From Nanobdellati archaeon (GTDB taxonomy: Archaea > EX4484-52 > GLR71): 64,000 nt of DNA. The notes beneath the pieces are model-generated. The model had not been told where the DNA came from and made no database searches. It saw only the letters and a program-made list of their open reading frames with translations. Of the stretch, positions 18,221 through 33,398 are shown piece by piece. The translations under genes and the position numbers were made by a program. Location: the NCBI GenBank assembly GCA_019429125.1, contig JAHYJO010000001.1, forward strand, positions 32,001 through 96,000, written 5' to 3'. Every line of letters starts with the position of its first letter. The first letter of the stretch is position 1.

Positions 18221-18871
18221 TTATCTTAATTTTCTTTTTACTATCTTTGTCCTTGTGAAATCTTCTCGAGCGCGTTCGTCAAGTTTAGATATTATCATCC
18301 TCTTGTCATTGTTGAGGGATGGGATGATGTAGTCTTCAAGCGCTGTTACCTTGCGTCTTGTATTTGCAATCTCTTTCTTTAATATTCTTGAGTTTGAGTC
18401 GATTTCGCCAACTTTTAGAATTAATGGTAAAGTATCCTCAAAAAGTGTTGCTGTGCCGTCAAGCGTGGCATCTGAGTCTGTGATGCTATAGCCACGTTCA
18501 AGGATTTTTCTTGAGTAGTCGGGGGCATTGATCTTTAACAGGTTGACACCCATTATTTTTTTTTCTGTGAGGTCTGTGTTTTTTGCTTTCTGGACGGATG
18601 CACCCAAGTATCGTGTCTCTATGTGACCTAAGCTTACTTGCGCATCTTTTAATATGTTAAATGCTTCAGTCATCTTTTTTTGCATGGTTTCTTTTTTTTG
18701 TATACTGTCTTTTGACATTGAGAAATATTCAAGTATTAATGCTTCGTTTTTTTCTTCAAGAAGTGTGTGGCCGGTTCTGCTCAGGTCAAGTGTTTCACTT
18801 ATTCGTTTTAGTTCAGTTCGTGTAGGTTTTGATTGTTCTCTAATCATGTCGTTCATACCAGAATCTTTCAA
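18221..18871 (-). CDS. atpD: A/V-type ATP synthase subunit D
   Basis: PTRTEL...GHTLLEEK, IMGV, TRRKVTALE..IIP, LDERAREDF.R.K. Confidence 0.95.
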   Translation of the reverse strand: MKDSGMNDMIREQSKPTRTELKRISETLDLSRTGHTLLEEKNEALILEYFSMSKDSIQKKETMQKKMTEAFNILKDAQVSLGHIETRYLGASVQKAKNTDLTEKKIMGVNLLKINAPDYSRKILERGYSITDSDATLDGTATLFEDTLPLILKVGEIDSNSRILKKEIANTRRKVTALEDYIIPSLNNDKRMIISKLDERAREDFTRTKIVKRKLR

Positions 18872-20195
18872 TTATGTCTTTGTCAATTTTTGTTAGTTCT
18901 TCTTTTGGAAGAATCTTCAGTAGTTTCCAGCCAAGGTCAAGGGTGTCTCTAATACTTCTTTTTTGGTTCTGGCTTATGAATTCCCTGTCAATTGCGGTCT
19001 TGAATTTGAGATATTTTTTGTCAATGTCAGTTAGTGCGTCTTCACCTATTATGGCTTTTAATTGTTCAAGTTTTTTTCCTCGCGTGTAGAATGCATAAAT
19101 TTGGTCTGATACAGCTTTATGGTCTTCTCGTGTCTTATCTAATCCTATGCCATGGTGCATCATTCTTGAAAGTGAGGGTATGATATCTATCGGAGGGAAG
19201 ATGTTTTGCCTGTGAAGAGCGGGTGATAAGAGTATCTGGCCTTCTGTGATGTATCCTGTTAAATCAGGTATGGGGTGCGTGATGTCACCTTCGGGCATGG
19301 TGAGAATAGGAATCTGGGTAATTGAACCTTTCTTGTCTTTTATTCTGCCTGTTCTTTCATAGATTGATGCTAAGTCTGAATAAAGGTATGGAGGGTAACC
19401 TCGTCTGCTTGGTACTTCTTCTTTTGATGCGGATATCTCTCTTAGTGCATTTGCGTAGTTTGTCATGTCTGAAAGTATGACCACTACGTTTCGGTCTTGT
19501 TCCCATGCGAAATATTCGGCAGTTGCAAGTGCTGCGCGAGGGGTGACTATACGTTCTATTACAGGGTCGCCTGCAAGGTTGGCAAAGACTATTATGTTTT
19601 CCAGCGCTCCTGTCTTTTCAAATTCTGAGACAAAATAGTTCAGTTCGTCATTTGTGACGCCTATTGCTGCAAATATTACAAGATCAGATTTTATGTTTTT
19701 GGCTATGTCTGCGGCTAGCTTGTTGTGGGGCATGCCGTTCTCTGAGAAGATGGGCAGTTTCTGTCCTCTGACAAGACTTAAGAGTCCGTCAATTGAGGAC
19801 AGACCTGTTTCTATGAATTTGTTGGGTACATCGCGCGAGGAGGGGTTTATAGGGTTGCCGTTTATGCTTATTTTTTGGTTAGGTATGAATTTCATACTTT
19901 TTGGTCTTCCAAGACCGTCAAAGATGCCACCTACCATGTCAGGCCCCACACCAATTGTGAAACTTTTGCCTAAGAACCGTATCTTTGTGCCTTTGGTGTC
20001 AATGTCTTGCGTGCCTTCAAAGACTTCGATTATTGCCAAGTCATCTTTTAGTTCAAGTACCTGCCCAGTACGTTCTGTGCCGTCTTCAAGTATGATCTTG
20101 ACCAGTTCATGGTATCTTGCGCCGTTTATGCCTTCGGCTATAATCAGAGGTCCTGCAACTTTAGTTATGGTCTCGTATTCTTTCAAGTTATTCAC
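18840..20195 (-). CDS. atpB: A/V-type ATP synthase subunit B
   Basis: VRGQKLPIFS, DMTNYANALREIS, EEVPSRRGYP, DITHPIPDLTGYITEGQ. Confidence 0.98.
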   Translation of the reverse strand: MNNLKEYETITKVAGPLIIAEGINGARYHELVKIILEDGTERTGQVLELKDDLAIIEVFEGTQDIDTKGTKIRFLGKSFTIGVGPDMVGGIFDGLGRPKSMKFIPNQKISINGNPINPSSRDVPNKFIETGLSSIDGLLSLVRGQKLPIFSENGMPHNKLAADIAKNIKSDLVIFAAIGVTNDELNYFVSEFEKTGALENIIVFANLAGDPVIERIVTPRAALATAEYFAWEQDRNVVVILSDMTNYANALREISASKEEVPSRRGYPPYLYSDLASIYERTGRIKDKKGSITQIPILTMPEGDITHPIPDLTGYITEGQILLSPALHRQNIFPPIDIIPSLSRMMHHGIGLDKTREDHKAVSDQIYAFYTRGKKLEQLKAIIGEDALTDIDKKYLKFKTAIDREFISQNQKRSIRDTLDLGWKLLKILPKEELTKIDKDIIERFWYERHD

Positions 20196-21924
20196 CTTTA
20201 TCTAAAAGGTCGTCAAGGTCTATCATGTCGGTTTTACCTAACAGTGTTTCTTCAATTTTTCGTGTTAGTGCGCCAAATTCGTATCTTTTTTCAAATTTCA
20301 TGCCGGCAATATTTTCAATGAGGTCTGTGTCTAATATATCTTTTAATTCTTTGTCGTGTTCAAGTGCTATAAGTCCCATTTCATAGTAGATTGCAAATAT
20401 CTTTAGCATCTCGTATTGCTTATCAAATCTACAGTACATGTCAACTTCGTGGAATGCGCTCTGTTGTAGGAAATTTTCGCGGAACAGTTCTGCAACTTTT
20501 AATAAGAACCGGTCTTTGTCTTCCAAGCCTTCATAACCTACAAGACGGACTATTTTTTCCAGTTCTTTTTCGTTTTGTAGTATTGTCATGAGTAAGTCTC
20601 GTAGTTCTGACCAGTCTTCGTAATTGTCGTCATTTATCTTTTTTAGGTCGTCTGTGTAATGTGAATAGCTTTCAAGCCAGTCAATGGCTGGGTAGTGGCG
20701 CATGTAGGCAAGGTCGCTTCTTAGTGCCCAGAAACAGCGGGTTATACTTTTTGTGGCCTGAACTACAGGTTCTGAAAAGTCACCTCCTGGGGGGGATACT
20801 GTACCCATGATGGTTAGGCTGCCAACGTTATCGTTTAATGTTTTTACAATGCCTGACCGTTCATAGAATGATGTTATTTTAGAGGCAAGGTATGCAGGAT
20901 AACCTTCGTCACCAGGCATTTCTTCAAGCATGCCTGATATTTCTCTGACTGCTTCGGCCCAACGTGATGTTGAGTCAGCAATGAGTAGAACGTTTAAGCC
21001 CATGTCACGGTAATATTCGCCTATTGTTGTTGCAAGGTATATGCTTGAGATTCTGGCTGAGACTGGCATGTTTGAGGTGTTTGCAATTATTATGCTTCTT
21101 TCCATTATGCTTTTTCCGGTTTTAATATCTTTTATTTTCGGGAAGCTTGAGAGGACGTCTGCACATTCGTTGCCACGCTCACCAACAAGTGCCATGATGA
21201 CTATGTCGGCGTCTGCGAATTTGGCTATGGTCTGTGTGGTTATGGTCTTTCCACAACCGAACCCGCCAGGGATTGCGGCACAACCACCTTTTGCGATGGG
21301 AAACATGGTGTCTATTACTCTCTGACCTGTAATTAGCATGTCTTTCGGTGTATATTTTTTCTTGAATGGTCTTTTTGTGTAGACGGGCCAGGTGATCTGC
21401 ATGGTAAGGTCTAATGTCTTGTCTTTGGTTTTTAATGTTCCGAAAATGTCTGTCACTGTGTAATTGCCGTCTTTTATTTTTATTGTGCCATCAGTTGTCG
21501 CAAATATCTTGTGGGTGATGTTGTCTGTCTCTTTTACTTCAGCTATTATGTCGCCTTTGTTTACGGGACCGTCTTTTGTTTTTTTAAGGTTCCATATTGT
21601 TTTTTGGTTTAGTGGGTCTTTTGAAATGCCTTTTTCTATGAATTGGTTCATGTCTTTCAGTGGTCTTTGGAGACCGTCAAATATACTTCCTATTAGTCCC
21701 GGGCCTAAAGTTGCGGTAATCTGTGTGCCTACTGATTTTACAGGGTCACCAATTTTTAGTCCGTCTGTCTCTTCAAATGCCTGGATTATGGCTTTACTAT
21801 TTTCTAGTTTTATGATTTCACCTATCAGTTTCTCGTTTCCTATGAGTACTTTTGAGTTCATCTTTGCGTTTTCAAGGTCTCTTGCTTCAATTATGTGACC
21901 TGCAATCCGTGTTATTTTTCCCAT
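20188..21924 (-). CDS. atpA: A/V-type ATP synthase catalytic subunit A
   Basis: Walker A GGFGCGKT, GERGNE, ADSTSRWAEA, VSPPGGDFSEPV; no intein. Confidence 0.98.
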   Translation of the reverse strand: MGKITRIAGHIIEARDLENAKMNSKVLIGNEKLIGEIIKLENSKAIIQAFEETDGLKIGDPVKSVGTQITATLGPGLIGSIFDGLQRPLKDMNQFIEKGISKDPLNQKTIWNLKKTKDGPVNKGDIIAEVKETDNITHKIFATTDGTIKIKDGNYTVTDIFGTLKTKDKTLDLTMQITWPVYTKRPFKKKYTPKDMLITGQRVIDTMFPIAKGGCAAIPGGFGCGKTITTQTIAKFADADIVIMALVGERGNECADVLSSFPKIKDIKTGKSIMERSIIIANTSNMPVSARISSIYLATTIGEYYRDMGLNVLLIADSTSRWAEAVREISGMLEEMPGDEGYPAYLASKITSFYERSGIVKTLNDNVGSLTIMGTVSPPGGDFSEPVVQATKSITRCFWALRSDLAYMRHYPAIDWLESYSHYTDDLKKINDDNYEDWSELRDLLMTILQNEKELEKIVRLVGYEGLEDKDRFLLKVAELFRENFLQQSAFHEVDMYCRFDKQYEMLKIFAIYYEMGLIALEHDKELKDILDTDLIENIAGMKFEKRYEFGALTRKIEETLLGKTDMIDLDDLLDKGE

Positions 21925-21937
21925 CGGTATTTCCTCA

Positions 21938-22135
21938 TCAATCTAGTTTGATTATAATTTTCCCCTCATCTTCAAGAGTTTCCAGTTCTTCGGTGAATCT
22001 GTCTGCATTAGTCTTGTCTACTATGAATATCTTTTCATCTTTTGCGTCTTTAGGGTTGTCGTAACTGTTTTTAATGCCTGCAAGGTTGAAACCGGTGACG
22101 GTATCTTTAGTGCCTATAATGCATATCATTTCCAA
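21938..22135 (-). CDS. atpF: A/V-type ATP synthase subunit F (short)
   Basis: IIGTKDTVTGFNLAGI signature; lies between C and A. Confidence 0.9.
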   Translation of the reverse strand: MEMICIIGTKDTVTGFNLAGIKNSYDNPKDAKDEKIFIVDKTNADRFTEELETLEDEGKIIIKLD

Positions 22136-22932
22136 ACACTTCTTAAAACGCTCTTTATTAGTTTTGTTTCCATCTCTTTTCTGAACATGAACTCAATGTA
22201 GAGGCCGATGCCGAATGGGTCAGACATTAGTTGCTGTCTTGCGCGGGCTTCAAGAGTTTTTTGTGAGGTATTTTCGTTGTTATCCTTGTTGAAGAGGTAT
22301 GGCTCGGCGCAGTCTTTGCCCAACCTTGATATTGTTTTTTGGTCTATCATTTGTTTGTATGTTTTCACGAAATTTCGGATAGGCTCGGTTGATATCTTTT
22401 CAAGTTCTGCCATGTATCTTTTGTCTAGTGCGTGTTCAAGGTCGGATATTTTTTGTGTCTTTTTATAATTTGTCAAACCTTCCTTATATGCTTGATACCA
22501 GAGGGTGTCTTCAAGGCTATTTTCTAGTGTGTTTAGGTCTTTTAGGGTGTCTGAGATATTGTAGATTGCGCCGTAAGCGGTTAGGTCTTTTTGTATTTGG
22601 GTTATGGGTATGTTTGCGCTTAGGCCACGGATTATCAGTTTCAAGTTTTGGAGATCAAATCTGATTAGGTATCGTTTGAAGTCGTCAGAGTAGCGTTTAG
22701 GTAGAAATCCTGTTACTTTGATTAGGTTTTGTATGAGCGCATTGTTTAGGTTTGCTTCAATTTCTTCTAGGTCAGTTGAGGCAAACATGGATTCGTATGT
22801 TGTGTCTTCAAGGTGTGTGATTAGTTCTTCTTTGGATTTTGCTGTCTGGGTTTCGGTTTTTGTTTCTGGTTTTAAGAGTTTGGAACGTAGGACGCGGACT
22901 CTTGCCGATGCGTATTCAAGGTCAAATATCAT
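22126..22932 (-). CDS. atpC: A/V-type ATP synthase subunit C (d)
   Basis: YASARVRVLRSKLL, L..T.Y, DLQNLKLIIRG, LEHALDKRY. Confidence 0.9.
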   Translation of the reverse strand: MIFDLEYASARVRVLRSKLLKPETKTETQTAKSKEELITHLEDTTYESMFASTDLEEIEANLNNALIQNLIKVTGFLPKRYSDDFKRYLIRFDLQNLKLIIRGLSANIPITQIQKDLTAYGAIYNISDTLKDLNTLENSLEDTLWYQAYKEGLTNYKKTQKISDLEHALDKRYMAELEKISTEPIRNFVKTYKQMIDQKTISRLGKDCAEPYLFNKDNNENTSQKTLEARARQQLMSDPFGIGLYIEFMFRKEMETKLIKSVLRSVWK

Positions 22933-22985
22933 GTGTATCTTAAGAATTAATTGGGGGCGGGTGGTATATATAGGGGGTGTGGTTT

Positions 22986-23044
22986 GGCATTGTTTAAGAT
23001 ATGAGTGATTTTGAATATTTTTTAATATTGTTTGTTTATAAACT
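22986..23044 (+). mobile_element. Degenerate left part of MITE family C
   Basis: ggcattgtttaagatatgagtg...atattgtttgtttataaact aligns with about 62229-62288. Confidence 0.65.
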
Positions 23045-23160
23045 TTTTCAAGGTTCTAAGTTTACTAAAGTAGTATTGAAATAGGGGTATCAAATAGGTA
23101 GATATCTTTATGAGCAATATAAATATTATCATTTATAAGATTAAAATGATAATCAATGGT

Positions 23161-23766
23161 ATGATTAAAGCAATCATATTTGATTTTGATGGTGTTATAC
23201 ATGATACTTTTGAGTTTCATAGGTCTAAATTGAAAGAGTTTACAGGGCATGAGGTATCAGAAAAAAGTTATAGGGATATTCATGACGGTAATTTCTATGA
23301 GCATAAAGGTAATGCGTTTACAAATACTGACTGGGATGGGTATGTTAAGTTTATACATCTTGAACAATCGGCACTGAAGATAAAGGTTGATATTCGGCAA
23401 GTGCTGATTGAATTGAATAAAAAGTATGAACTTTTTATCATATCGTCTGGGTGCGCAAAAAATATTTCTGCTTATCTTGGTAATAATGGTATATCGAAGA
23501 TATTTACTGAGGTTTTAGGTTTTGAGAATCATAGATCTAAAGTTGAGAAGTTCAAGATGTTGTTTGATAAGTATAGACTTTGTCATGATAATTGCATATT
23601 TATAACTGATACGTTGGGCGACATACTGGAAGCCAACAAGGTTGGTGTTGAGACTGTAGCTGTTGATTTTGGGTTCCACTCTAAAGAACGGTTAGAAAAA
23701 GGAAATCCATATAAGATTATTTCTTGTTTCAGGGAGATTATACCTGTTATTGATGCTGGTTTCTGA
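23161..23766 (+). CDS. HAD-family hydrolase (phosphoglycolate-phosphatase-like)
   Basis: Motif I IIFDFDGVIHDT; motif II ISS; K; motif IV FITDTLGDI; FGFH. Confidence 0.93.
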   Translation: MIKAIIFDFDGVIHDTFEFHRSKLKEFTGHEVSEKSYRDIHDGNFYEHKGNAFTNTDWDGYVKFIHLEQSALKIKVDIRQVLIELNKKYELFIISSGCAKNISAYLGNNGISKIFTEVLGFENHRSKVEKFKMLFDKYRLCHDNCIFITDTLGDILEANKVGVETVAVDFGFHSKERLEKGNPYKIISCFREIIPVIDAGF

Positions 23767-23830
23767 AATTTAAACATTTTTCACTAAATAATATCATTTT
23801 TTAAAATTATTCTGTGCTTATTAACTACGT

Positions 23831-24259
23831 ATGGATAAAATATTGAAAAAGTATATGAGTCAGGTTGTGATTGAAAATGCGGGGCCTGATACAACTGATA
23901 ATGATGAGTTGGGTACTGATTATATATGTATGATTTTACGGATTCCTATAGCTATGCTTACTGAATATTAAAAGAATAAAAGAGAGGTTAAAGGTTCTCC
24001 TGATTTGGTAGGATTTTGGAAAGATACGGGATTTTATGAGAAGTTGTGCATTATTGCAGAATGTGATTATAGGTATAATTTTGCAATTGATGCTTTGGAA
24101 TTTTTAGGTGGTGAAGTTAGTGGTAAATATCTTGGGATTTTAAATGATAAAACATTACGTGTGGAAATATGTGAGGAATGGTCTGAGGATTATAGATGTG
24201 CTTACACTTTAGATTCTTATCAAAAAACTTTTGATTATTTTGAAGAAGAGTTGTTTTAA
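23831..24259 (+). pseudogene. Hypothetical protein interrupted by an in-frame TAA (23969-23971)
   Basis: ATG 23831 is in frame with the 24005-24259 ORF; a single stop lies between them. Confidence 0.45.
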
Positions 24260-24462
24260 TTCTAGTTCTGGGCACTTTAAGAACTATATGGTTTCTAAAA
24301 AGGTTGTATAGTCTTTTATGTGCATACATATGGTTAAAAATTTAAAAAAGATTGATTTGCATAATAATTAGAATGTATATTTAAAAGTATTAGATTAGTT
24401 TTGTTCAGCATCAAATATACAGATGCTTAGAACCGATTTATATTTTAAATTATAGATATCAT

Positions 24463-25131
24463 TTAAATTATATCTATTTGATACTTTGCATTTTTATATA
24501 CAATATCTTTGTATGCTATTGCATCTTCTTCTCTTGTGAAATACTGTGGAAAACTATTTATTTTTGGATTAAGATTTATGCCACCTGAATCAAGGCTGAA
24601 TGTCTTATCTTTTTCAGAAGATAATATGTCTAAATCTTTAAGATGTAAAATGATTTGTGTATATAATTTAGAACCTGAGTATTTTTGAGTATCTATTGAA
24701 TCTATAAGTTTCCATTTAACAGTTGCTTCTCCTTTATTAAATATTATAGGTTCTTTAACATCATTATATATTTTTTTGAATTCATCTATGATTGATTGAC
24801 AGCATTTTGTATCTATATCAATTCCACTATAGAAGGGGTTATAAAATGGTGGAGGGGTTTGGGTTTCATATTGTTTGGGTATTGGTATGTTTAGTTCCTG
24901 TTCAAGATATAAAATTATTCTGTTATATAATTCGTTTGGGTCTGTCTGGTCTTTAAGCTCTATAGAATCTATTAGTTTCCAGTCAACAATTGCTTTTCCT
25001 TTATCGAAGGTTATAGGTTCTGTGACATTATCATATATATTTTTGATGTTATCTAATACTGATTTACAACATGTTTTTTGTGTTGAAATTCCGCAGTATA
25101 TACTAATACTGGGCTTATATTTTTGAGGCAT
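24463..25131 (-). CDS. Hypothetical protein with tandem duplicated domain
   Basis: Two copies of Y.GI....CC.S..D..K.IY..V.EPI.F.KG.A.V.WKLIDSI. Confidence 0.75.
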   Translation of the reverse strand: MPQKYKPSISIYCGISTQKTCCKSVLDNIKNIYDNVTEPITFDKGKAIVDWKLIDSIELKDQTDPNELYNRIILYLEQELNIPIPKQYETQTPPPFYNPFYSGIDIDTKCCQSIIDEFKKIYNDVKEPIIFNKGEATVKWKLIDSIDTQKYSGSKLYTQIILHLKDLDILSSEKDKTFSLDSGGINLNPKINSFPQYFTREEDAIAYKDIVYKNAKYQIDII

Positions 25132-25143
25132 ATATTAATTAGA

Positions 25144-25425
25144 TTAATTTAAATATAAAAATGTTTTGTATGTATTTGATTTATTTTTTATATTTTTGCA
25201 ACAGTATTGTTTATGATGTTTGTTGATGCATATAAGATTATTAATGCAACTCATAAGAATACCAAGATAAAGAATGTTTTTTTCTAAGCTCATATCTTTT
25301 TTTAAAAGCAGTAGGAAGTATGCTATGCTGCTACCTATTGCCGGGCCAACTGGGTCGAAGAACAATCCTGCAACAGGTAACAATGCATATAGATAATTGT
25401 ATCTGTTGTTATTTTTATTTATCAT
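25144..25425 (-). CDS. Hypothetical small membrane protein
   Basis: 93 aa with hydrophobic segments; low-complexity C-terminus. Confidence 0.4.
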   Translation of the reverse strand: MINKNNNRYNYLYALLPVAGLFFDPVGPAIGSSIAYFLLLLKKDMSLEKNILYLGILMSCINNLICINKHHKQYCCKNIKNKSNTYKTFLYLN

Positions 25426-25468
25426 ATTGTGTATTTAGGTGATTTGTGTTTATATGTTGTAGAAAATG

Positions 25469-26020
25469 TTAATTGTTGAGCATTTCTGCAATGCGTTTTT
25501 CTAGATTTTCTCGTTTTTTTTCAAGGTGCAGGTCAAAACTTTTGTTGATGTGTACTTTTTTGTCTGTGAATATGAATCCACCTATGATGTCTGTGTGTGT
25601 TGGTTTTATCTTTTTTTTTGTGAGCATGTCTTCAGCTTTCTTGTCACCTTTTTTTATTGATACAGTCATGCCTTTTTTGTAGTTGTCATTGAATGTTTTT
25701 TCAAGAAATGAGTCATAACTTTTAGATGTTATGAATTTTATTATGCTGTCATCTATCAATTTGTCAATCAGTTCTTTTCGTCGTTCCATTATCTTTAGTT
25801 TTTGTTTGAGGCGCGCACGACCAAGCATCTGTTTTTCGGTTGTAAGGATATCTGTTTCAGATTCTTCTTTAATTTTTTGTTCTTCTTTTGCCATACTGGT
25901 TGCAAGGTCAAGCTTTATCAGGTTCAACTTTTCTGTGTTTTGGTGCTGTATCTGGTATATTTTTTCATCTGCTTCTCTTTTTATTTCAGAGAGGAGATCT
26001 TCGGCATGCATAGGAGTCAC
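25469..26020 (-). CDS. atpE: A/V-type ATP synthase subunit E
   Basis: N-terminal coiled coil (LLSEIKREA), IIGGFIF, INKSFD; position in the canonical order. Confidence 0.9.
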   Translation of the reverse strand: MTPMHAEDLLSEIKREADEKIYQIQHQNTEKLNLIKLDLATSMAKEEQKIKEESETDILTTEKQMLGRARLKQKLKIMERRKELIDKLIDDSIIKFITSKSYDSFLEKTFNDNYKKGMTVSIKKGDKKAEDMLTKKKIKPTHTDIIGGFIFTDKKVHINKSFDLHLEKKRENLEKRIAEMLNN

Positions 26021-26148
26021 TATATTATTTGTGGTGTTTTCTGTATATATAGGTTGTATTGGTTATGGTTTTTTTTGATTTGTAGTGGGTGGGAAGTAGT
26101 GAAAAGAATAAGGTTTTTAAAGATTTATATTATATTAATTGATATTGA

Positions 26149-26811
26149 TTGGTGATTGTTTTGAGTGATACTGACGATAAATGGGATAGTTCAGAACTTG
26201 GAGATTATATGCATAATTTAAGTAATATGGTAAACTTTCTGATTAAAGAACATTTAAAGACATATTATCCTCCTGGAGGTTTACAATTTTCAGATTTATC
26301 TATAGATCTAAAGATGGAGCCTAAACCTATTATTCAAAATACATATGAGTCACATCAAAAGAATATTTCTTATGAACAGGTTAAATTGAGTATATATGCA
26401 ATTACTGAATGGTATAATTTATTTACAACAGTACTTGAGGCAGATGATGTTGAGACTATTTATGGCATGATTGGTTTTGATGAGTCGTCAGATTATTCAA
26501 ATCTTGAGAAGGTTGTAGGGACTGATAAGATAACTACATTTGATATGTTTAATTATTTAGACCCTATAGATGTTGAAGAAAGTAAGTATGATGGGTATTT
26601 ATCTGATATGTTTAATCATTCTGATTTAAAAATAGTTGTAGATAGTGATTATTCTGAACCCCATAAGAATTGTATTTGTTTTAATCTTTTTCCACAGGAC
26701 TGTTCAAAAAATATTTTAGTTATTTATCGAGTTGATACATGTGATGTGTTTGTGAATACTAGGGGTTATACTAATCTGAATCCAAATTATATAATTGATA
26801 AGTTTTTCTGA
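26149..26811 (+). CDS. Hypothetical acidic protein
   Basis: 220-aa ORF inserted on the opposite strand between atpK and atpE. Confidence 0.7.
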   Translation: MVIVLSDTDDKWDSSELGDYMHNLSNMVNFLIKEHLKTYYPPGGLQFSDLSIDLKMEPKPIIQNTYESHQKNISYEQVKLSIYAITEWYNLFTTVLEADDVETIYGMIGFDESSDYSNLEKVVGTDKITTFDMFNYLDPIDVEESKYDGYLSDMFNHSDLKIVVDSDYSEPHKNCICFNLFPQDCSKNILVIYRVDTCDVFVNTRGYTNLNPNYIIDKFF

Positions 26812-26824
26812 GGGTTTAAGTTTC

Positions 26825-27064
26825 TCAAACTGTCACCAATCCGAAACCGAATGCTATCAGAATTATTGCAATTGCAAACCCGTAAAGTGCTTGAGTCTCT
26901 GTTAATACAGCCATGGCAATGGATTTCCCAAATAGTTTTTCATTTTCTGCGGTTGCACCAATTGCTGCCGCTACTGCTTTGCCCTGGCCTATGCCTGACC
27001 CGGCAGCGGCAAAACCTACTGCGATTCCTGCGCCAATTGCTATTAGACCAATCTGTTCAAGCAT
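26825..27064 (-). CDS. atpK: ATP synthase c/K subunit (single hairpin, Na+-type Q...ETQxxY site intact)
   Basis: GSGIGQG and VLTETQALYG. Confidence 0.95.
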   Translation of the reverse strand: MLEQIGLIAIGAGIAVGFAAAGSGIGQGKAVAAAIGATAENEKLFGKSIAMAVLTETQALYGFAIAIILIAFGFGLVTV

Positions 27065-27079
27065 TTTTTATCATCTCTA

Positions 27080-27334
27080 TTAAATAATTATGAGGCCGAA
27101 GCCGAAAGCAATCAATATGAAGGCGATTGCAAAACCGTAGAGCGCCTGGGTCTGGACAAGGACCGACATCGCAAGCATCTTTCCGAATGCGTTCTGGTTC
27201 TTGGCTGTCCTCTCTATCGCTTCTCGTGTGGTTGTCCCTTGACCTATGCCTGATCCGGCAGATGCTACACCCACTGCAATTGCAGCGCCAATGGCTATAA
27301 GTCCAAGAGCTGCAAATTGTGTTTCAGCTATCAT
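27080..27334 (-). CDS. atpK: ATP synthase c/K subunit paralogue lacking the ion-binding Glu (E to Q)
   Basis: GSGIGQG and VLVQTQALYG; C-terminal half nearly identical to the neighbouring gene. Confidence 0.92.
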   Translation of the reverse strand: MIAETQFAALGLIAIGAAIAVGVASAGSGIGQGTTTREAIERTAKNQNAFGKMLAMSVLVQTQALYGFAIAFILIAFGFGLIII

Positions 27335-27409
27335 ATAGATTACTACCTGATTATTTTTTGGTGTTATATGTATAAATAAGTTATAACAAAAAGAAAATAA
27401 AAAATATTT

Positions 27410-27787
27410 TTATCTTGCAGTTTCGTCAGATTCCATAAGGCCTAATACATTCCCTTCAGGGTCCCTGAATACGGCCATGTAACCGATGGTCGGGATGGGG
27501 GTCTTGGGCATGAGTATTGTGCCATGGTTATCTTTTATTTTCGTTATGTAGATGTTAATTGAAAAAACCTCAATTGTGTTTCTTGCCAGATTAGCATCTT
27601 TTTCTCTTTTTACTAATCCACCATCTATGCCAGGCATATCTGGATTACCTGTCATGATCTGCCAGTATTCCATAGGGCCTTTCCATTTCTTAAATGTCCA
27701 GCCGAAGACATCTTTATAGAATTTTATGGCTCTTTCTGGTGTCTCTGTATCTATCTCAAAGTGAACAACTCTTGGCATTTTTATCAC
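27410..27787 (-). CDS. VOC/glyoxalase family protein
   Basis: VVHFEI...RAIKFY..VFGW, GIDGG, FRDPEGNVLGL. Confidence 0.95.
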   Translation of the reverse strand: MIKMPRVVHFEIDTETPERAIKFYKDVFGWTFKKWKGPMEYWQIMTGNPDMPGIDGGLVKREKDANLARNTIEVFSINIYITKIKDNHGTILMPKTPIPTIGYMAVFRDPEGNVLGLMESDETAR

Positions 27788-28084
27788 CTTTTATCAAGTT
27801 AATTAAGGTTATAATATATATTATGTAATATATATTCCAACGTATATAAACGTGTATTTATTATCTTGTTTGAAATATAGCAAACTCCGAAAGTAATTTC
27901 GTATTTGTATCAAATATTTATGTTATGGATACCTTTTTTTCAGAAAATTAATTGAAAAACATTGTTGGTTTGCTATAATTTAATCTTATTATTTTGTTAG
28001 TATGTAGGACTAATTGATATGGAGTCTGTTTTTTTTGTAAAGATTAAATGTAATATTTATATTATGTCGTTTTCAAATAAATGT

Positions 28085-28774
28085 ATGCGATATTCAATTG
28101 TGGGTAAAGATTTTGTCATTTGCAGTGATATGGATAAGTTATTGATTGATAGTGGTTTTATCTGTGACAATGATAATCCTGAGGTTGTATTTTCGTGTGG
28201 TGGCGATGGGGCTATACTTGTCTCTGAAAGATTGTATCCTGGAATTCCTAAAGTAACAATTAGATATAGTGACATGGGGCATAAATGCGTATTTGATAAG
28301 GCTGATATTGAAAATGTTATTGAGTGCATAAAAAATAATGATTATAAAATTCGTGAATATATAAAACTTGAAGCTGTCTGTGACGGTGAAAAAGGTGTGG
28401 CATCAAATGAGGTGCAGGTACATAACAAGAGACCCACACGGGCTGTAAGGTTCAATGTCTATGTCAACGGCAAGATTTTATATGATAATGTCGTAGGGGA
28501 TGGTATTGTAATTTCTACTCCTTTCGGGGCGAGCGCATATTACAGGTCTGTTGGTGGCAAACAGTTTGATAAAGGGATTGGTATTGCACTGAACAATCCG
28601 GTCGACAAGAAATCTAGTATGGTTGTTTCAGATTCGTCTGTGATTGAGATTGAGATGTTGCGAGAAGTTGGGCAGGTATTTTGTGACAATCATTGTGAGG
28701 GTATGATGCTTCTTGCGCCGGGTAAAAAGGTATTTATTAAGAAATCTGAGGGGACTGCTAAATTTATTGTTTGA
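28085..28774 (+). CDS. nadK: NAD kinase
   Basis: GGDG, NE, GDGIVISTPFGASAY.S.GG motifs. Confidence 0.9.
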   Translation: MRYSIVGKDFVICSDMDKLLIDSGFICDNDNPEVVFSCGGDGAILVSERLYPGIPKVTIRYSDMGHKCVFDKADIENVIECIKNNDYKIREYIKLEAVCDGEKGVASNEVQVHNKRPTRAVRFNVYVNGKILYDNVVGDGIVISTPFGASAYYRSVGGKQFDKGIGIALNNPVDKKSSMVVSDSSVIEIEMLREVGQVFCDNHCEGMMLLAPGKKVFIKKSEGTAKFIV

Positions 28775-28822
28775 TTTTTAAAGGATTTATTCATTTTTAT
28801 ATTGTTATAGGGTGTTGATTTT

Positions 28823-30010
28823 ATGGCTGAAGATATTTATCAAAGATCGTTGGATGCGCACAAGCGCGCTAAAGGTAAGATTGCAATACTGCCTAAGATG
28901 CCGGTTGCTACAAAAAATGATTTGTCTATAGCTTATACGCCGGGTGTTGCTGAACCTTGCAGGCAGATACATAAAAATTCTGGTTTGGTTTATGATTATA
29001 CATCAAAAGGTAATCTTGTGGCTGTCGTGACAGATGGTAGTGCGGTTTTAGGTCTCGGTAACATTGGGCCATTGGCTGCTCTGCCGGTCATGGAAGGTAA
29101 ATCTATTCTTTTTAAGGCGTTTGGTGACGTTGATGCGATACCAATTTGTCTTGATACACAAGATGTTGATGAGATTGTTAAGACTGTTAAGTTAATCGCG
29201 CCAACATTTGGTGGTATCAATCTTGAGGATATATCTGCACCGCGATGTTTTGAGGTTGAGAGTCAGCTTAAGGCTGAGCTTGATATACCAGTGTTCCATG
29301 ATGATCAGCACGGAACGGCTATTGTTGTACTTGCTGCGCTTATTAATGCGTCAAAGGTTGTGGGTAAAGATATACATAAGATGAATATTGTCATGTCTGG
29401 GGCAGGGGCTGCGGGCATAGCTATAGCTAATATTCTTTTGGATTATAGTATCGGTGACATGATTGTGTGCGATTCTGTGGGTGCAATTTATTTAGGCCGA
29501 AAAGATAATATGAACACTGAGAAGGAAATTTTGGCAAAGATTACGAATCGCGGTCTTAAAGACGGTAAACTTGGTTCTGTAATTTCAGGTGCTGATGTCT
29601 TTATAGGCGTATCAAAACCAGGTGTCCTCACAAAAGAGATGGTTGCAACTATGGCAACTGACGCTATCGTATTTGCTATGGCTAATCCTGTGCCTGAAAT
29701 TATGCCGGATGTTGCAAAAGAAGCAGGCGCAAAAGTTGTGGGCACTGGTCGGTCGGATTTTCCTAATCAGATAAACAATGTATTAGCGTTTCCTGGTATA
29801 TTTCGCGGTGCATTGGACGTGCGCGCAAGCGACATAAATAGTGAGATGAATCTTGCGGCTGCAATGGCTATTGCTGGTCTTGTTGATGATTCAAAGTTAG
29901 ATGCTGAGCATGTTATTCCTTTGGCGACAGATAAGAATGTTGCAAAAGCTGTTGCAAAAGCTGTGTCTGTAGCAGCAAGAAAAAGTGGGGTTGCTCGGGT
30001 TTTGGATTGA
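28823..30010 (+). CDS. NAD(P)-dependent malic enzyme (small prokaryotic type)
   Basis: AYTPGVA, TDGSAVLGLG, NLEDI, FHDDQHGTA, GAGAAG, MANP, GRSDFPNQINN. Confidence 0.97.
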   Translation: MAEDIYQRSLDAHKRAKGKIAILPKMPVATKNDLSIAYTPGVAEPCRQIHKNSGLVYDYTSKGNLVAVVTDGSAVLGLGNIGPLAALPVMEGKSILFKAFGDVDAIPICLDTQDVDEIVKTVKLIAPTFGGINLEDISAPRCFEVESQLKAELDIPVFHDDQHGTAIVVLAALINASKVVGKDIHKMNIVMSGAGAAGIAIANILLDYSIGDMIVCDSVGAIYLGRKDNMNTEKEILAKITNRGLKDGKLGSVISGADVFIGVSKPGVLTKEMVATMATDAIVFAMANPVPEIMPDVAKEAGAKVVGTGRSDFPNQINNVLAFPGIFRGALDVRASDINSEMNLAAAMAIAGLVDDSKLDAEHVIPLATDKNVAKAVAKAVSVAARKSGVARVLD

Positions 30011-30102
30011 TTTGTGGATGATGGTATTTTTTTAGTTTTTTATTCATTTTAAGTTATAATGTGTGGTTTATTTTATATTTTATCTTGTGTAAAATTAGAG
30101 TT

Positions 30103-30930
30103 ATGTCTGTTAAAGCGTCAGATTATAGTATTGAGTATTCATTAGTTGATGGGATGCCTACTCATAATATTTTTATCCGGCTTAATGATACTTTTGCAGA
30201 TTATTTAAAAAACTCGTATTATCCTAATAATAAGGATAAGTATGATGAAATTGCATTGAATGCTATGAAAATCAATAATTGTTCTGAAGATAATATTGAT
30301 ATCATTGAAAACAAAAGTGTATGTAATTGGGAGGGTGGAGTATTAGATAATATAATGTTTCCAGTAGGCAGTGCTGTTAGTTTAGTGATTGAATATAATA
30401 CTGATTTTGGAACAATATATAGGTCACATAATGTGGATAATATTTCCAAGATGTCTGTTCTTATGACTGTCATTACAAATTATCTTTCAAATATGAGCAT
30501 GTCTTTTGAACATTTTAAGTCTGGTGAGCGAGGGAATTATAAGATTTGGTATAATATAAATGATAAGACACCCTATCATGATATTTCTGTAGAGATTTCG
30601 GATGATTTTCTAGAATCATTGAAATATTTAGATGTGAATAAAAAATATTATGATAAAATTGCTATTGATGCTATGAAAATTTGTGGCGTAGATAAAATCT
30701 TTATAGATGCTGCAGAAGTTACAGAGGTTTGTGATTGGGATGATGGGTTATTAAAACATATTATCTTGCCTTATAGGGATGCAACTGAATTGGTTCTTGA
30801 ATTTGATACACCTTATGGGAATGTTTATAAATCACATAATGTGAATGGTTACGTACAGATGGCTGTTCTTATGACAGTAATTACAAATTATTTTTCTGAT
30901 ATGGATTTGATATTATCACGTGATTTTTAG
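30103..30930 (+). CDS. Hypothetical protein with tandem duplicated domain
   Basis: Two copies of YD.IA..AMKI...VC.W..G.L..I..P...Y.SHNV...M.VLMTVITNY.S.M. Confidence 0.8.
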   Translation: MSVKASDYSIEYSLVDGMPTHNIFIRLNDTFADYLKNSYYPNNKDKYDEIALNAMKINNCSEDNIDIIENKSVCNWEGGVLDNIMFPVGSAVSLVIEYNTDFGTIYRSHNVDNISKMSVLMTVITNYLSNMSMSFEHFKSGERGNYKIWYNINDKTPYHDISVEISDDFLESLKYLDVNKKYYDKIAIDAMKICGVDKIFIDAAEVTEVCDWDDGLLKHIILPYRDATELVLEFDTPYGNVYKSHNVNGYVQMAVLMTVITNYFSDMDLILSRDF

Positions 30931-30941
30931 GGATTTATTTT

Positions 30942-31223
30942 TTATTCGTGATTGAATTTCTTTCTTATTGAAAGGATTATAAAGCCGTATTTTTCTATAT
31001 CTTCTTTTGTGTGATATTTCTCCATGTCTTTTGTGTTGAACTTGTAGAGAATCTCACAGTCTTGGGTCTTGTCTGTAAGTGTATCTGTTCCGTTTTTTTG
31101 TTCTTTCAATACTAATGTGTCGTCTTCTTTGCAATCAAAATCTGCAAGTCTTACTTCAAATCGTTTTGCGCTCTCACTAATTGCATTGAAATATTTTTAT
31201 TAAACCATTTTTTCAATTTTCAT
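30942..31223 (-). pseudogene. DUF3850/ASCH(PUA)-like protein pseudogene (not in the ORF track)
   Basis: MKIEKMV**KYFNAISESAKRFEVRLADFDCKEDDTLVLKE...IEKYGFIILSI; two consecutive TAA at codons 8-9. Confidence 0.75.
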
Positions 31224-31287
31224 AGTTTTCACTTTTATATTTATTATTTCTTATTTTGATTTGTGGTATTATCTTTATTACTTGTAA

Positions 31288-33078
31288 TTATCTACTATAT
31301 TTGTTCTTGTTCTCTAACGGTTTGAATTCTTCACCGCCTGATTCGTAGAATCTTTCAAAGAATTCCACATAGTGTAATCGCATTGAATGGACAAATGCGC
31401 TCACAACGTTTAATGCCATGTTTAAGCTGTGGCCGATAACAAAGACTAGTCCTGCAAGGATGATTGATAATTTTGCGGCTGCAGTCACACCCATGTTTAT
31501 CACGAACTGGAGCCAGGAGGTTGCAACGGCCAAGGCCATAAGACGTATGTAGGATATCCAGGATCCGAAAAATGAGGGTACTGATAATATCCCTGTTGGG
31601 CCGTCTTTTGATCTGTAGATGATGGTTGCTATTATTAATATGCATCCGATTGATTTAGGTATTCCTTGTCCTATGACTAGTATTGTTACTCCTATTTCAA
31701 GCGATACCCAGGATAGGGGGTCAAGGATATTTTTGCTTTTTGATTTTATCTTTGAATATAGGTCAAGCGCTAGGCCGAAATTTATGTGGACTAGACCTAT
31801 AGCTAAAGATACTTTTAAGATGGTTATTGGGTCGCGGAGCGCGTCAAAAACTGAGACGAAACCTAAGAAGTCACCGAATATGCTCCCGAAAATGAGACCT
31901 GCAAAAATTGTTGCGACAGAAGACACTATCATAATATAGGATAATGCTTTGAGATCTTTGTCGTCTGTCTTTAAATATGCGAAAAGCGATGCTGCAAGGA
32001 GTATGAGACCGTAGGCCATATCTGTCAACATTATCGCGAAAAATATTGGGAATGCGACGGCGATAAATATTGTGGGGTCAATGCCTTCATATTCTGGAAG
32101 GCCGAACCATCTTGTCAATTTTTCAAAAGGTTGCGCAAAATTCGGGTTTTTCAGTTTTATTGGTGGTTCTGTTTTTGGTTTTTGTGTGTATACTACTATG
32201 TTTTCTATAGTTTCAAGCTCTTTTATGTTTGTAGTGGGTATCCAGCCTCGTAAGACAAATGTCTTTTCTGTATGGTTCAATAGTTTTTCTTTTGAAAGGC
32301 GGGTTTTTATGTTTTCCCATCGCTCTTCGTAGGCTAGGATTTTGTTTTTTTCTTTTTGAATAAGTTTTTCTGATTCTTTTATTTTGAGCGTCTCTTTGTC
32401 TATGGTGTCTAGTTCTGTTTTGGTTTCTTTTATGTTATCTTTTATTGTTTTTGTTGCGTCTATTTTTTCAAGATACATGTATTTTTTAATATCAATCCAG
32501 ATCTCTTTTTTTGCTATGAATATGATATATTTCGTATCTTCTGTTTCATCTATGACCTTTAGGTCGCAGTTATCTTTTATCTTGTCAAAATCTTTTGTTT
32601 TGACTGATGCTATTGAACTTATGTATTTTTTTGTATCTGAAAATGCATTGTCTTTTATGTTGACGTGTGCGAAATGGTTTAAGAAATCTAGTTTTTTTTC
32701 TGTTGCATTTTTTTTGTCACTAAATATTTTTTCACTTTCAAGGATGTTTTTTGCATTTTTAAATAGTGGTTCTATGTATATTTTTGATACTGTTGCAAAA
32801 GCTATGTCTTCTGTTTCTGGTATTTGTATTATTTTTGTATCTTTTTTAAATATGTTCTTTTTTGTGTCAAGTACTTTTTTAATCGTTCTTATATGGTCAA
32901 GATTTATGACTGTCTCGTGTATGAGTTCTTTTGGTGTTTCTAAATTGCCTGTATTTTCCGTTTTGGTCAAGTGTATGGTGCCTAAATGTTGCAATCTTTT
33001 CAAGATATCATCTTTCTCCTTTCGTAGCCCAAGGATGTATATCTCTTCCATCTTTTCGGGTCTGAACATAAATATCAC
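31288..33078 (-). CDS. atpI: A/V-type ATP synthase subunit I (a)
   Basis: MFRPEKM, LRGWIP, IDPT, D..YG, SYIRLMAL, HSMRLHYVEFF. Confidence 0.97.
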   Translation of the reverse strand: MIFMFRPEKMEEIYILGLRKEKDDILKRLQHLGTIHLTKTENTGNLETPKELIHETVINLDHIRTIKKVLDTKKNIFKKDTKIIQIPETEDIAFATVSKIYIEPLFKNAKNILESEKIFSDKKNATEKKLDFLNHFAHVNIKDNAFSDTKKYISSIASVKTKDFDKIKDNCDLKVIDETEDTKYIIFIAKKEIWIDIKKYMYLEKIDATKTIKDNIKETKTELDTIDKETLKIKESEKLIQKEKNKILAYEERWENIKTRLSKEKLLNHTEKTFVLRGWIPTTNIKELETIENIVVYTQKPKTEPPIKLKNPNFAQPFEKLTRWFGLPEYEGIDPTIFIAVAFPIFFAIMLTDMAYGLILLAASLFAYLKTDDKDLKALSYIMIVSSVATIFAGLIFGSIFGDFLGFVSVFDALRDPITILKVSLAIGLVHINFGLALDLYSKIKSKSKNILDPLSWVSLEIGVTILVIGQGIPKSIGCILIIATIIYRSKDGPTGILSVPSFFGSWISYIRLMALAVATSWLQFVINMGVTAAAKLSIILAGLVFVIGHSLNMALNVVSAFVHSMRLHYVEFFERFYESGGEEFKPLENKNKYSR

Positions 33079-33398
33079 TTTTTATCTTCTGTGTTAAGGT
33101 ATTTTATTATGAAGGTGAGTAGTTCTTTCTTTTTGTCTTTATAGTTCTCTTCAAGTAGCCTTATGTTTTTGTCTGTCTCCTTGTTCATTGCGTGTATCTC
33201 GTTTTCAACAAGTTTCAATCGTTCTGCCTTTTCTATCTCTATCTTTGTCTTGACAGTTTTTTTGTGCTCTTTAAGTTTTTTTATATTTGTTATCTTTTCA
33301 GATTTCAATCTAAGGTTCCAGCTTTTTTCAAGGAGAGTTATGTTTTTCTCCATTTTATTTTCAGTTTCTGTGATTTTTTCTATGGTGCGCTCTATCAT
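33075..33398 (-). CDS. atpH: A/V-type ATP synthase subunit H/G (peripheral stalk)
   Basis: 107-aa charged helical protein (IEKITETE) overlapping atpI by ATGA. Confidence 0.75.
   Translation of the reverse strand: MIERTIEKITETENKMEKNITLLEKSWNLRLKSEKITNIKKLKEHKKTVKTKIEIEKAERLKLVENEIHAMNKETDKNIRLLEENYKDKKKELLTFIIKYLNTEDKK

Follow-up and report, generated by a model that had tools for sequence, protein, structure and literature searches.

We describe a pair of adjacent genes that encode single-hairpin c (K) subunits of an archaeal A-type ATPase, one of which lacks the ion-binding carboxylate. The pair is found in 64,000 nucleotides of DNA from a Nanobdellati archaeon (GTDB lineage Archaea; EX4484-52; GLR71; GenBank assembly GCA_019429125.1, contig JAHYJO010000001.1, positions 32,001 to 96,000 of the forward strand); we refer to this whole stretch as the “window”, and all coordinates are given within it unless a contig is named. 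Both genes are on the minus strand. The upstream gene, which we call K' (27080..27334), is an open reading frame (ORF) of 84 aa that contains MSVLVQTQALYGF, and in which Gln61 (codon CAG) replaces the ion-binding Glu. The downstream gene, K (26825..27064), is an ORF of 79 aa that contains MAVLTETQALYGF and encodes a canonical single-hairpin c subunit. K' is positioned 15 nt upstream of K.

The two proteins are clearly related to one another and to the wider proteolipid family. Each matches the Pfam family ATP-synt_C (PF00137) across the entire profile (positions 1–60 of 60), with 62.9 bits for K' and 74.3 bits for K against a curated cut-off of 24 bits, and 51 of 75 aligned residues (68%) are identical between them. 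Both have a Gly/Ala-rich helix 1 in the hairpin predicted from sequence (GAAIAVGVASAGSGIGQG in K', GAGIAVGFAAAGSGIGQG in K), with the motif GSGIGQG. In the ORF translations, the key stretch of helix 2 reads LVQTQALYGF in K' and LTETQALYGF in K. The Na+-type ligand set of K is complete within one hairpin (Q27, E56, T57, Q58, and Y61). K' keeps the helix-1 Gln32, together with Thr62, Gln63, and Tyr66, such that the only missing Na+ ligand is the carboxylate; the ion-carrying carboxylate of helix 2 is absent from K' (Gln61 in all 15 sequences available) and present in K (Glu56). The accessible part of a recent preprint gives a rule for Na+-type c subunits, i.e., a helix-1 E/Q plus E[STQ][STQ]xxY (bioRxiv 10.64898/2026.10.01.756066). 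By this motif rule, K would be a Na+-type c subunit, and K' would fail at the Glu alone. The loop of K' (TTREAIERTAKNQN, which includes TTTREAIERT) is divergent and charged. We therefore regard K' as a family member by descent and fold, but presumably not a functional ion carrier. The public annotations we have seen name K' plainly as “V-type ATP synthase subunit K”.

K' and K share a reading frame and are separated by a spacer of 15 nt (27065..27079, minus strand; TAGAGATGATAAAAA) that contains further in-frame stops and a purine-rich, Shine-Dalgarno-like sequence, GAGATGAT. On this strand, the sequence across the junction runs TAA TAG AGA TGA TAA AAA ATG, with four in-frame stop codons of three kinds (TAA, TAG, TGA, and TAA). 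An earlier note on this DNA had read LVQTQALY in K', LTETQALY in K, a common frame, and TAA TAG AGA TGA TAA AAA between the genes, and had taken K' and K to be distinct. The sequence is exactly as described, and the four in-frame stops and the two full PF00137 hairpins bear out the distinction; the one point to correct is the strand, since the note gave no indication that the genes are on the minus strand. The common frame is found in 6 of 6 species, with one to four stops between the genes. In three sister species, the spacer is TAG GTG AAA AAY ATG, which includes AGGTGA, and a single in-frame TAG separates the genes. We infer a Shine-Dalgarno element ahead of K. Readthrough or recoding into a fused K'-K protein was considered and is ruled out for the window by the three kinds of stop codon; it may formally occur in the three species with one in-frame TAG. 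A TATA-box-like element, TTTATACA (27369..27376, minus strand), precedes the start codon of K' by about 35 nt. Its core (CTATTTATACA / TTATTTATACA) is kept in 7 of 7 aligned K' upstream regions, and the DNA further upstream is unrelated between subgroups. This element is likely the promoter of a K'-K transcription unit.

Of the 8 genomes in g1, the genus to which the window belongs, 6 have the K'-then-K arrangement (G000, which carries the window, G001, G002, G003, G005, and G007). Of the other two, G004 (68% complete) gave no c-subunit match in the genome search, and G006 (87% complete) yielded no K'/K pair; its only matches were a c subunit and an I subunit belonging to a second type of ATPase. 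In all six K'/K pairs, the key codon is CAG in K' and GAG in K. In 15 of 15 K' sequences, drawn from several sources, Q32, Q61, T62, Q63, Y66, and the Gly/Ala pattern of helix 1 are invariant, as are the loop residues T35, T36, R37, E38, A39, I40, E41, T43, and A44. By the Nei-Gojobori method (NG86) over 75 codons, the ratio of nonsynonymous to synonymous substitution rates (dN/dS) of K' is 0.02–0.20 in every one of the 15 species pairs, where dS reaches about 1.9; the corresponding ratio of K is 0–0.023, with dS reaching about 1.9–2.1. Thus, the Gln codon and the charged loop to which the earlier note drew attention are real and conserved, and K' is evolving under purifying selection rather than neutrally. 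Because the Gln is conserved, dN/dS is low, and the TATA-like box is kept, we conclude that K' is a genuine gene under purifying selection. Sequencing error at the Gln codon is ruled out by its presence as CAG in 6 of 6 species and by Gln in all 15 sequences, and a chance origin of the pair is ruled out by its recurrence in six species.

K' appears to be a recent, local duplicate of K. Its small DPANN-type phylum was sampled, at the levels of phylum, class, and order, by a single set of 42 genomes, among which K' is confined to g1. Ten further genomes (genera g2, g3, g12, and g13; E <= 1e-12) have a single K of type 1, and ETQALY was read at all ten of the loci examined, one of them partial. 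This single K is the sole type-1 c gene found in the sister genera; it is 83–85% identical to the K of g1, and 61–64% identical to K'. In G008 (g2), the operon is unbroken, with the order H-I-K-E-C-F-A-B-D and one K, and in G025 (g12), the tblastn matches give the order I-K-C-F-A up to the contig end. The genomes of g1, by contrast, have genes of the opposite strand between I and K', and the window genome also has an insertion between K and E.

We built a quick maximum-likelihood tree of individual hairpins, with the E/Q column removed, from 75 columns and 49 of 80 rows. The 31 omitted rows are the remaining hairpins of two 13-hairpin proteins, later hairpins of fused proteins, all hairpins of P0024, P0026, P0040, and P0062, and the single-hairpin row P0064. 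K' sequences form a group with a Shimodaira-Hasegawa-like approximate likelihood ratio test (SH-aLRT) value of 100, a long stem (0.54), and short tips (<=0.03). This group is nested in a clade (SH-aLRT 96) that consists solely of K sequences from this phylum and one metagenomic K; the clade that unites K' with the K of g1 is weakly supported (59). In an approximately unbiased (AU) test, constraining K' to group with the first hairpins of fused proteolipids is disfavored (p = 0.026). Taken with synteny, the tree and the AU tests indicate that K was duplicated in tandem in the g1 ancestor, with a burst of change in K' followed by stasis. Since K' is a genus-level duplicate that lies inside the K clade of its phylum, it is not an ancestor of fused V-type proteolipids but an independent parallel to them, and the suggestion in the earlier note that it might be an evolutionary intermediate in proteolipid duplication is not supported. 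Rather, K' would be an independent re-run of duplication and then carboxylate loss, without fusion. A word-indexed search with K' returned five clusters, all its own, and has little bearing on distant relatives.

As far as our searches show, the Q...QT pattern of K' is otherwise described solely within fused proteins, among them c1 of Acetobacterium woodii and many fused proteolipids of archaea, some with 13 hairpins. The best match of K' among solved structures is Enterococcus hirae NtpK (2bl2; E 6.3e-11). K' can be aligned to both hairpin 1 (LPGTQGLYGF) and hairpin 2 (GIAQG...VETYAILGF) of NtpK; the K' Gln falls on the Gly of hairpin 1 and on the Glu of hairpin 2, and its T-Q-x-x-Y falls on TQGLY. 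With respect to what we take to be the residues of the NtpK Na+ site, there is a likeness: T-Q-x-x-Y without a carboxylate is found in hairpin 1 of NtpK, the helix-1 Gln and the Glu are found in hairpin 2, and the gene order K' then K mirrors the order of the hairpins. There are also clear differences. NtpK is a single four-helix polypeptide, whereas K' and K are separate. In hairpin 1 of NtpK, Gly takes the place of the Glu and the helix-1 Gln is missing, whereas K' has Gln at both positions. Lastly, K' derives from a recent duplication of K and not from the hairpin-1 lineage. The proposal in the earlier note that the pair is the unfused equivalent of a V-type proteolipid therefore holds in part: K' is a carboxylate-less hairpin able to donate T-Q-x-x-Y, as judged from the alignment to 2bl2, but it is not a copy of the V-type hairpin 1, because the helix-1 Gln is kept and the AU test disfavors that grouping.

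The same distinction is seen across fused proteolipids more broadly. An exhaustive search of representative proteins gave 310 matches at E <= 1e-3, and we examined five key positions per hairpin in the best 150 of these 310. Among those 150, at least 24 are fused proteolipids in which hairpin 1 has Gln at the Glu position and later hairpins have Glu. These 24 first hairpins keep T-Q-x-x-Y, and the helix-1 Gln is lost wherever the position was read, with V, A, S, L, T, I, or M in its place. K' likewise lacks the carboxylate but, unlike them, retains the helix-1 Gln32. Moreover, fused proteolipids have two hairpins per polypeptide, and K' and K, which are divided by in-frame stops, do not. The matches listed also include proteins of 1042, 784, 1139, 631, and 968 aa with 12, 10, 15, 8, and 11 detected hairpins, respectively. 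A further class (P0035, P0038, P0052, P0072, P0081, P0131, and others) comprises four- and five-hairpin proteins, roughly 320–410 aa long, in which Glu is found in hairpin 1 only and Gln in the rest (e.g., EETAF AQTPF SQTPF SQSTY). At one locus (L061), a multi-hairpin gene of this Glu-first type is followed by a separate gene for a single Glu hairpin.

Two 13-hairpin proteins are especially relevant to K'. They are encoded by single open frames in records of metagenome-assembled genomes, one titled Candidatus Woesearchaeota (L035, 7802-10945, 1048 aa; L036, 8579-11914, 1112 aa), and each has an entire rotor ring in one polypeptide, i.e., the Methanopyrus kandleri type; the M. kandleri case of a multi-hairpin proteolipid is taken from the accessible part of the same preprint (bioRxiv 10.64898/2026.10.01.756066). 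Two to three of the 13 hairpins have Gln for Glu, namely hairpin 1 and one or two internal hairpins. The internal Gln hairpins match the K' pattern exactly, with a helix-1 Q and then QTQ..Y, and so these proteins resemble the K'/K pair in having K'-pattern hairpins among Glu-bearing ones. Their existence argues that a minority of neutral positions is tolerated in K-like rings. They differ from the pair in that the hairpins are fused and the gene fixes both stoichiometry and order, whereas K' and K leave both to assembly.

Rings built from more than one kind of proteolipid are also known. The eukaryotic V-ATPase ring is heteromeric, with c, c', and c'' being paralogous proteolipids from separate genes. 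It resembles the pair described here in that respect, but its members are fused four- or five-helix proteins, each with one carboxylate, and none is known to be a carboxylate-less single hairpin. A closer precedent is the bacterial F1FO enzyme of Acetobacterium woodii and Clostridium aceticum. As reported in the accessible portion of one paper, c1 of these species combines a “Q....ET” hairpin with a “Q....QT” hairpin whose Na+ site does not work, and c1 joins the single-hairpin c2 in the ring, lowering the Na+/ATP ratio (PMC7911925). According to the accessible portion of another, the A. woodii ring has nine single-hairpin subunits (c2/3) and one V-type subunit (c1), and an enzyme with a V-type c subunit still makes ATP at 90–150 mV (PMC9171764). 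As far as these portions describe them, such rotors resemble the K'/K pair in that different c genes are adjacent, one has a Q...QT hairpin, the other hairpins are single with Q....ET, and the Na+/ATP ratio is lowered. By contrast, the Gln hairpin in those bacteria is fused to a working hairpin within c1, and here it is a free protein of 84 aa; the enzyme there is a bacterial F-type, and here the operon is an archaeal A-type; and co-assembly has been demonstrated in A. woodii and is proposed for K' and K. Given the fused precedents (A. woodii c1 and the giant proteolipids), Na+ rings that work with a neutral Gln hairpin are already known, and the free-standing protein is the unusual part. Our literature searches, which left most subscription journals outside their coverage, found no description of a free-standing, carboxylate-less, single-hairpin c/K gene.

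There may be a second case of a free-standing neutral hairpin. MSBL1/Hadarchaeia records P0069, P0137, P0176, P0180, and P0184 are stand-alone PF00137 hairpins of 76–79 aa without a carboxylate. The residue at the Glu position is Gln in P0069, P0176, P0184, and P0180 (P0180 being without the helix-1 Gln), and Met in P0137. Like K', these hairpins keep T-Q-x-x-Y, have a divergent, charged loop, and coexist with stand-alone Glu-bearing partners. Within one MSBL1 assembly, P0137 is numbered next to P0304, a Glu-bearing hairpin (accessions KXB08514.1 and KXB08515.1), and this numbering suggests that the two genes are adjacent. The MSBL1/Hadarchaeia hairpins differ from K' in being about 45% or less identical to it, and in that they fall on trees beside the hairpin-1 clade of fused forms and not with K'. 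They may represent a second, older unfused K'/K system. A metagenome scan with P0069 found 35 loci, none with a stand-alone neutral hairpin of the P0069 type.

Our preferred interpretation, to which we assign a probability of about 0.68, is that K' is a functional, carboxylate-less paralogue in a heteromeric, Na+-type A1AO rotor ring that consequently has fewer ion sites. After duplication of K, K' would have changed fast, acquiring the Glu-to-Gln substitution and the new charged loop, and would have been constant since. We envisage that one small transcription unit yields both proteins, and that these co-assemble in one ring. Each K would provide a complete Na+ site (the helix-1 Gln, Glu, Thr, Gln, and Tyr). 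Each K' would occupy one ring position and could help to form the site of the neighboring K with its Thr, its Gln, and a backbone carbonyl; being neutral, its Gln would carry no ion past the stator subunit I. The number of ions per turn would then equal the K copy number and not the number of hairpins, lowering the ions-per-ATP ratio, as in fused V-type proteolipids and with the Q...QT hairpin of A. woodii c1. The K:K' ratio could be 1:1, or there could be a few K' per ring; by analogy, neutral hairpins make up 1 in 11 in A. woodii, while the giant proteolipids have 2–3 of 13 and NtpK has 1 of 2. More speculatively, the conserved new loop of K' may touch subunit C, the rotor socket, or act as a positional marker.

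Structure prediction of a complex of three K and one K' lends weak support to co-assembly. The complex scored 0.39, and the best of three controls scored 0.15; at least 9% of contacts agreed between runs, and the partner had a predicted local distance difference test (pLDDT) value of at least 65. In calibration, 58 of 80 solved complexes passed the mark, as did 2 of 110 mismatched pairs; at scores of <=0.60, those that passed were just 7 of the 80 solved complexes and both of the passing mismatches.

Several considerations weigh against this interpretation. Rings of c subunits have already been solved, so the prediction may have passed on likeness alone, and co-assembly of K' with K would thus lean on one weak, likeness-prone model. 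Nothing is seen to enforce a defined K:K' stoichiometry, and K is 83–85% identical to a K that is the sole type-1 c subunit of sister genera. The proposed Na+ specificity of K derives from its motif. Mixing c subunits without the carboxylate into the ring of the E. coli F-ATPase has a dominant-negative effect; hence, tolerance of neutral positions is not universal. Lastly, the inferred origin of K' is soft, since the tree and the AU tests draw on just 75 columns, and two other groupings of K' were not rejected by AU tests, one with the Gln hairpins inside 13-hairpin proteins (p = 0.077) and one with the hairpins from MSBL1/Hadarchaeia (p = 0.20).

The alternatives differ mainly in how, or whether, K' sits in the ring. 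If the pair were a strict split V-type proteolipid, K' and K would alternate 1:1 as NtpK-like halves, and exactly half of the hairpins would carry an ion. The order K' then K is that of the fused forms, with the carboxylate-less hairpin first; the two genes are in one small unit with one conserved TATA-like box; the K' T-Q-x-x-Y is aligned with that of NtpK hairpin 1; and a single in-frame TAG lies between the genes in three species, into which we read nothing firm. We nevertheless consider strict alternation unlikely. K' and K are not covalently joined; the helix-1 Gln, which fused first hairpins have lost, is present in K'; and K' is a recent copy of K and not a hairpin-1 homologue, as indicated by the AU test against that grouping. 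Furthermore, K-K contacts evidently work, because sister genera have a single, highly similar K as the sole type-1 c subunit. Related single-polypeptide rings have only 2–3 Gln hairpins of 13, and A. woodii has one c1 per nine c2/3, by the accessible portion of the source (PMC9171764). On these proportions, a minority of K' in the ring is at least as likely as a 1:1 ratio.

It is improbable, in our estimation, that K' is expressed without being a permanent ring member, i.e., that it serves as an assembly template or chaperone, as a plug, or as a regulator that competes with K and, in certain conditions, brakes or uncouples the enzyme. A strongly diverged yet conserved charged loop could serve a new partner, and neutral c subunits mixed into some F-type enzymes inhibit them. 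Such roles, however, leave unexplained the conservation of T62, Q63, Y66, and Q32, which matter solely in a ring beside an ion site, and every fused analogue has such hairpins in working rings. We give very little credence to the idea of K' as a redundant dosage duplicate subject to drift or decay, with the Glu-to-Gln change being a neutral or slightly harmful accident. Tandem c duplicates do occur in the genus, in the form of type-2 K genes that encode identical proteins in G003 and G007. Decay is nonetheless at odds with a K' dN/dS of 0.02–0.20 at near-saturated dS, with an invariant Gln in 15 of 15 sequences and intact reading frames, and with one long burst followed by stasis (stem 0.54, tips <=0.03).

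The ATPase gene set on the minus strand of the window comprises H, I, K', K, E, C, F, A, B, and D. Subunit I, the a-type stator (31288..33078; PF01496), is parted from K' by inserted genes and adjoins K in sister genera. Upstream of it, the putative subunit H (33075..33398) has no Pfam match and is named by position; it is kept upstream of I in L098, L099, and L034 (tblastn). Downstream of K is the peripheral-stalk subunit E (25469..26020; PF01991), which comes directly after K in L034. Then follow subunit C, the d-type rotor socket on the ring (22126..22932; PF01992), and subunit F (21938..22135; PF01990). The catalytic subunit A (20188..21924) has its PF00006 match at G000:C16:52662-53327 (20662-21327 in the window) and is 58% identical to the G008 gene; subunit B (18840..20195) has its PF00006 match at G000:C16:51167-51805 (19167-19805 in the window) and is 68% identical. 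The putative central-stalk subunit D (18221..18871) is assigned by position and shares 43% identity with the gene that ends the G008 operon.

Compared with L098, L100, and L034, the operon (18221-33398) is split in g1 into at least three blocks (H-I, K'-K, E, and then C-F-A-B-D). The intervening genes include a malic-enzyme-like ORF (28823-30010) and ORFs without a Pfam match at 26149-26811, 24463-25131, and 30061-30930. Translations of the ORFs at 24463-25131 (minus strand) and 30061-30930 (plus strand) each show an internally duplicated domain, the domain being roughly 100–130 aa long.

The genome (1.16 Mb, 93% complete) encodes two full A-type ATPase sets. The second set is on G000:C24 (L002, L084-L085, L088, and L090) and includes I, K, E, A, and B. 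Its c subunit is a protein of 74 aa with a helix-1 Glu and PETIVLFGF in helix 2, and the type of ion site differs from that of the window K. The second-type c gene is tandemly duplicated in G003 (L080, G003:C85) and G007 (L081, G007:C113). Both copies have Glu and encode the same protein, save for a short N-terminal extension on one; this duplicate is of a plain dosage type, unlike K'/K.

Other genes suggest the energetic context in which the pair may function. One contig has a Mrp/Mbh-like membrane module (G000:C21; L101, 8334-12645) with MnhE, F, G, MbhD, MbhE, MnhB, 4L, and MnhD. Another has a group-4 [NiFe]-hydrogenase-like module (G000:C13; L102, 4677-8492) with 20-kDa, 30-kDa, and 49-kDa/NiFe subunits, a NuoH-like subunit, a 2x[4Fe-4S] protein, and HypA. 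By their gene content, the two modules, though on separate contigs, look like a split Mbh-type energy-converting hydrogenase. Searches of this 1.16-Mb genome found no Rnf/Nqr, haem-copper oxidase, or H+-PPase. Thermococcales combine Mbh with a Na+ A1AO synthase, and by analogy the setting here resembles that scheme in a very small genome. The K'/K enzyme may work as a synthase, as a pump, or as both.

The ratio of ions to ATP decides whether an enzyme can synthesize ATP at low driving force or serves as a pump. Two ways of setting this ratio are known, through ring size and through fused proteolipids in which sites have been lost. Encoding a neutral ring position in a gene of its own would be a further, potentially adjustable route. 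We raise, as a doubtful but consequential possibility, that free-standing carboxylate-less hairpins are a recurrent, undescribed archaeal means of gearing down the A-type rotor that evolved at least twice, once in this DPANN genus and once in MSBL1/Hadarchaeia. If so, a separate neutral-hairpin gene would let a cell set K:K' by expression, making the ions-per-ATP ratio adjustable rather than hard-wired, and ion-site loss could precede gene fusion, reversing the textbook order of duplicating, fusing, and then losing the site. The K'/K pair is a natural, recent, and simple test case, consisting of two 80-residue proteins that are 68% identical, in a minimal, Thermococcus-like Na+ bioenergetic setting with a second A-type ATPase and a Mbh/Mrp-like complex. 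It bears on how rings tolerate neutral positions and what fixes their number and place, and on the order in which duplication, ion-site loss, and fusion occur on the way to V-type proteolipids.

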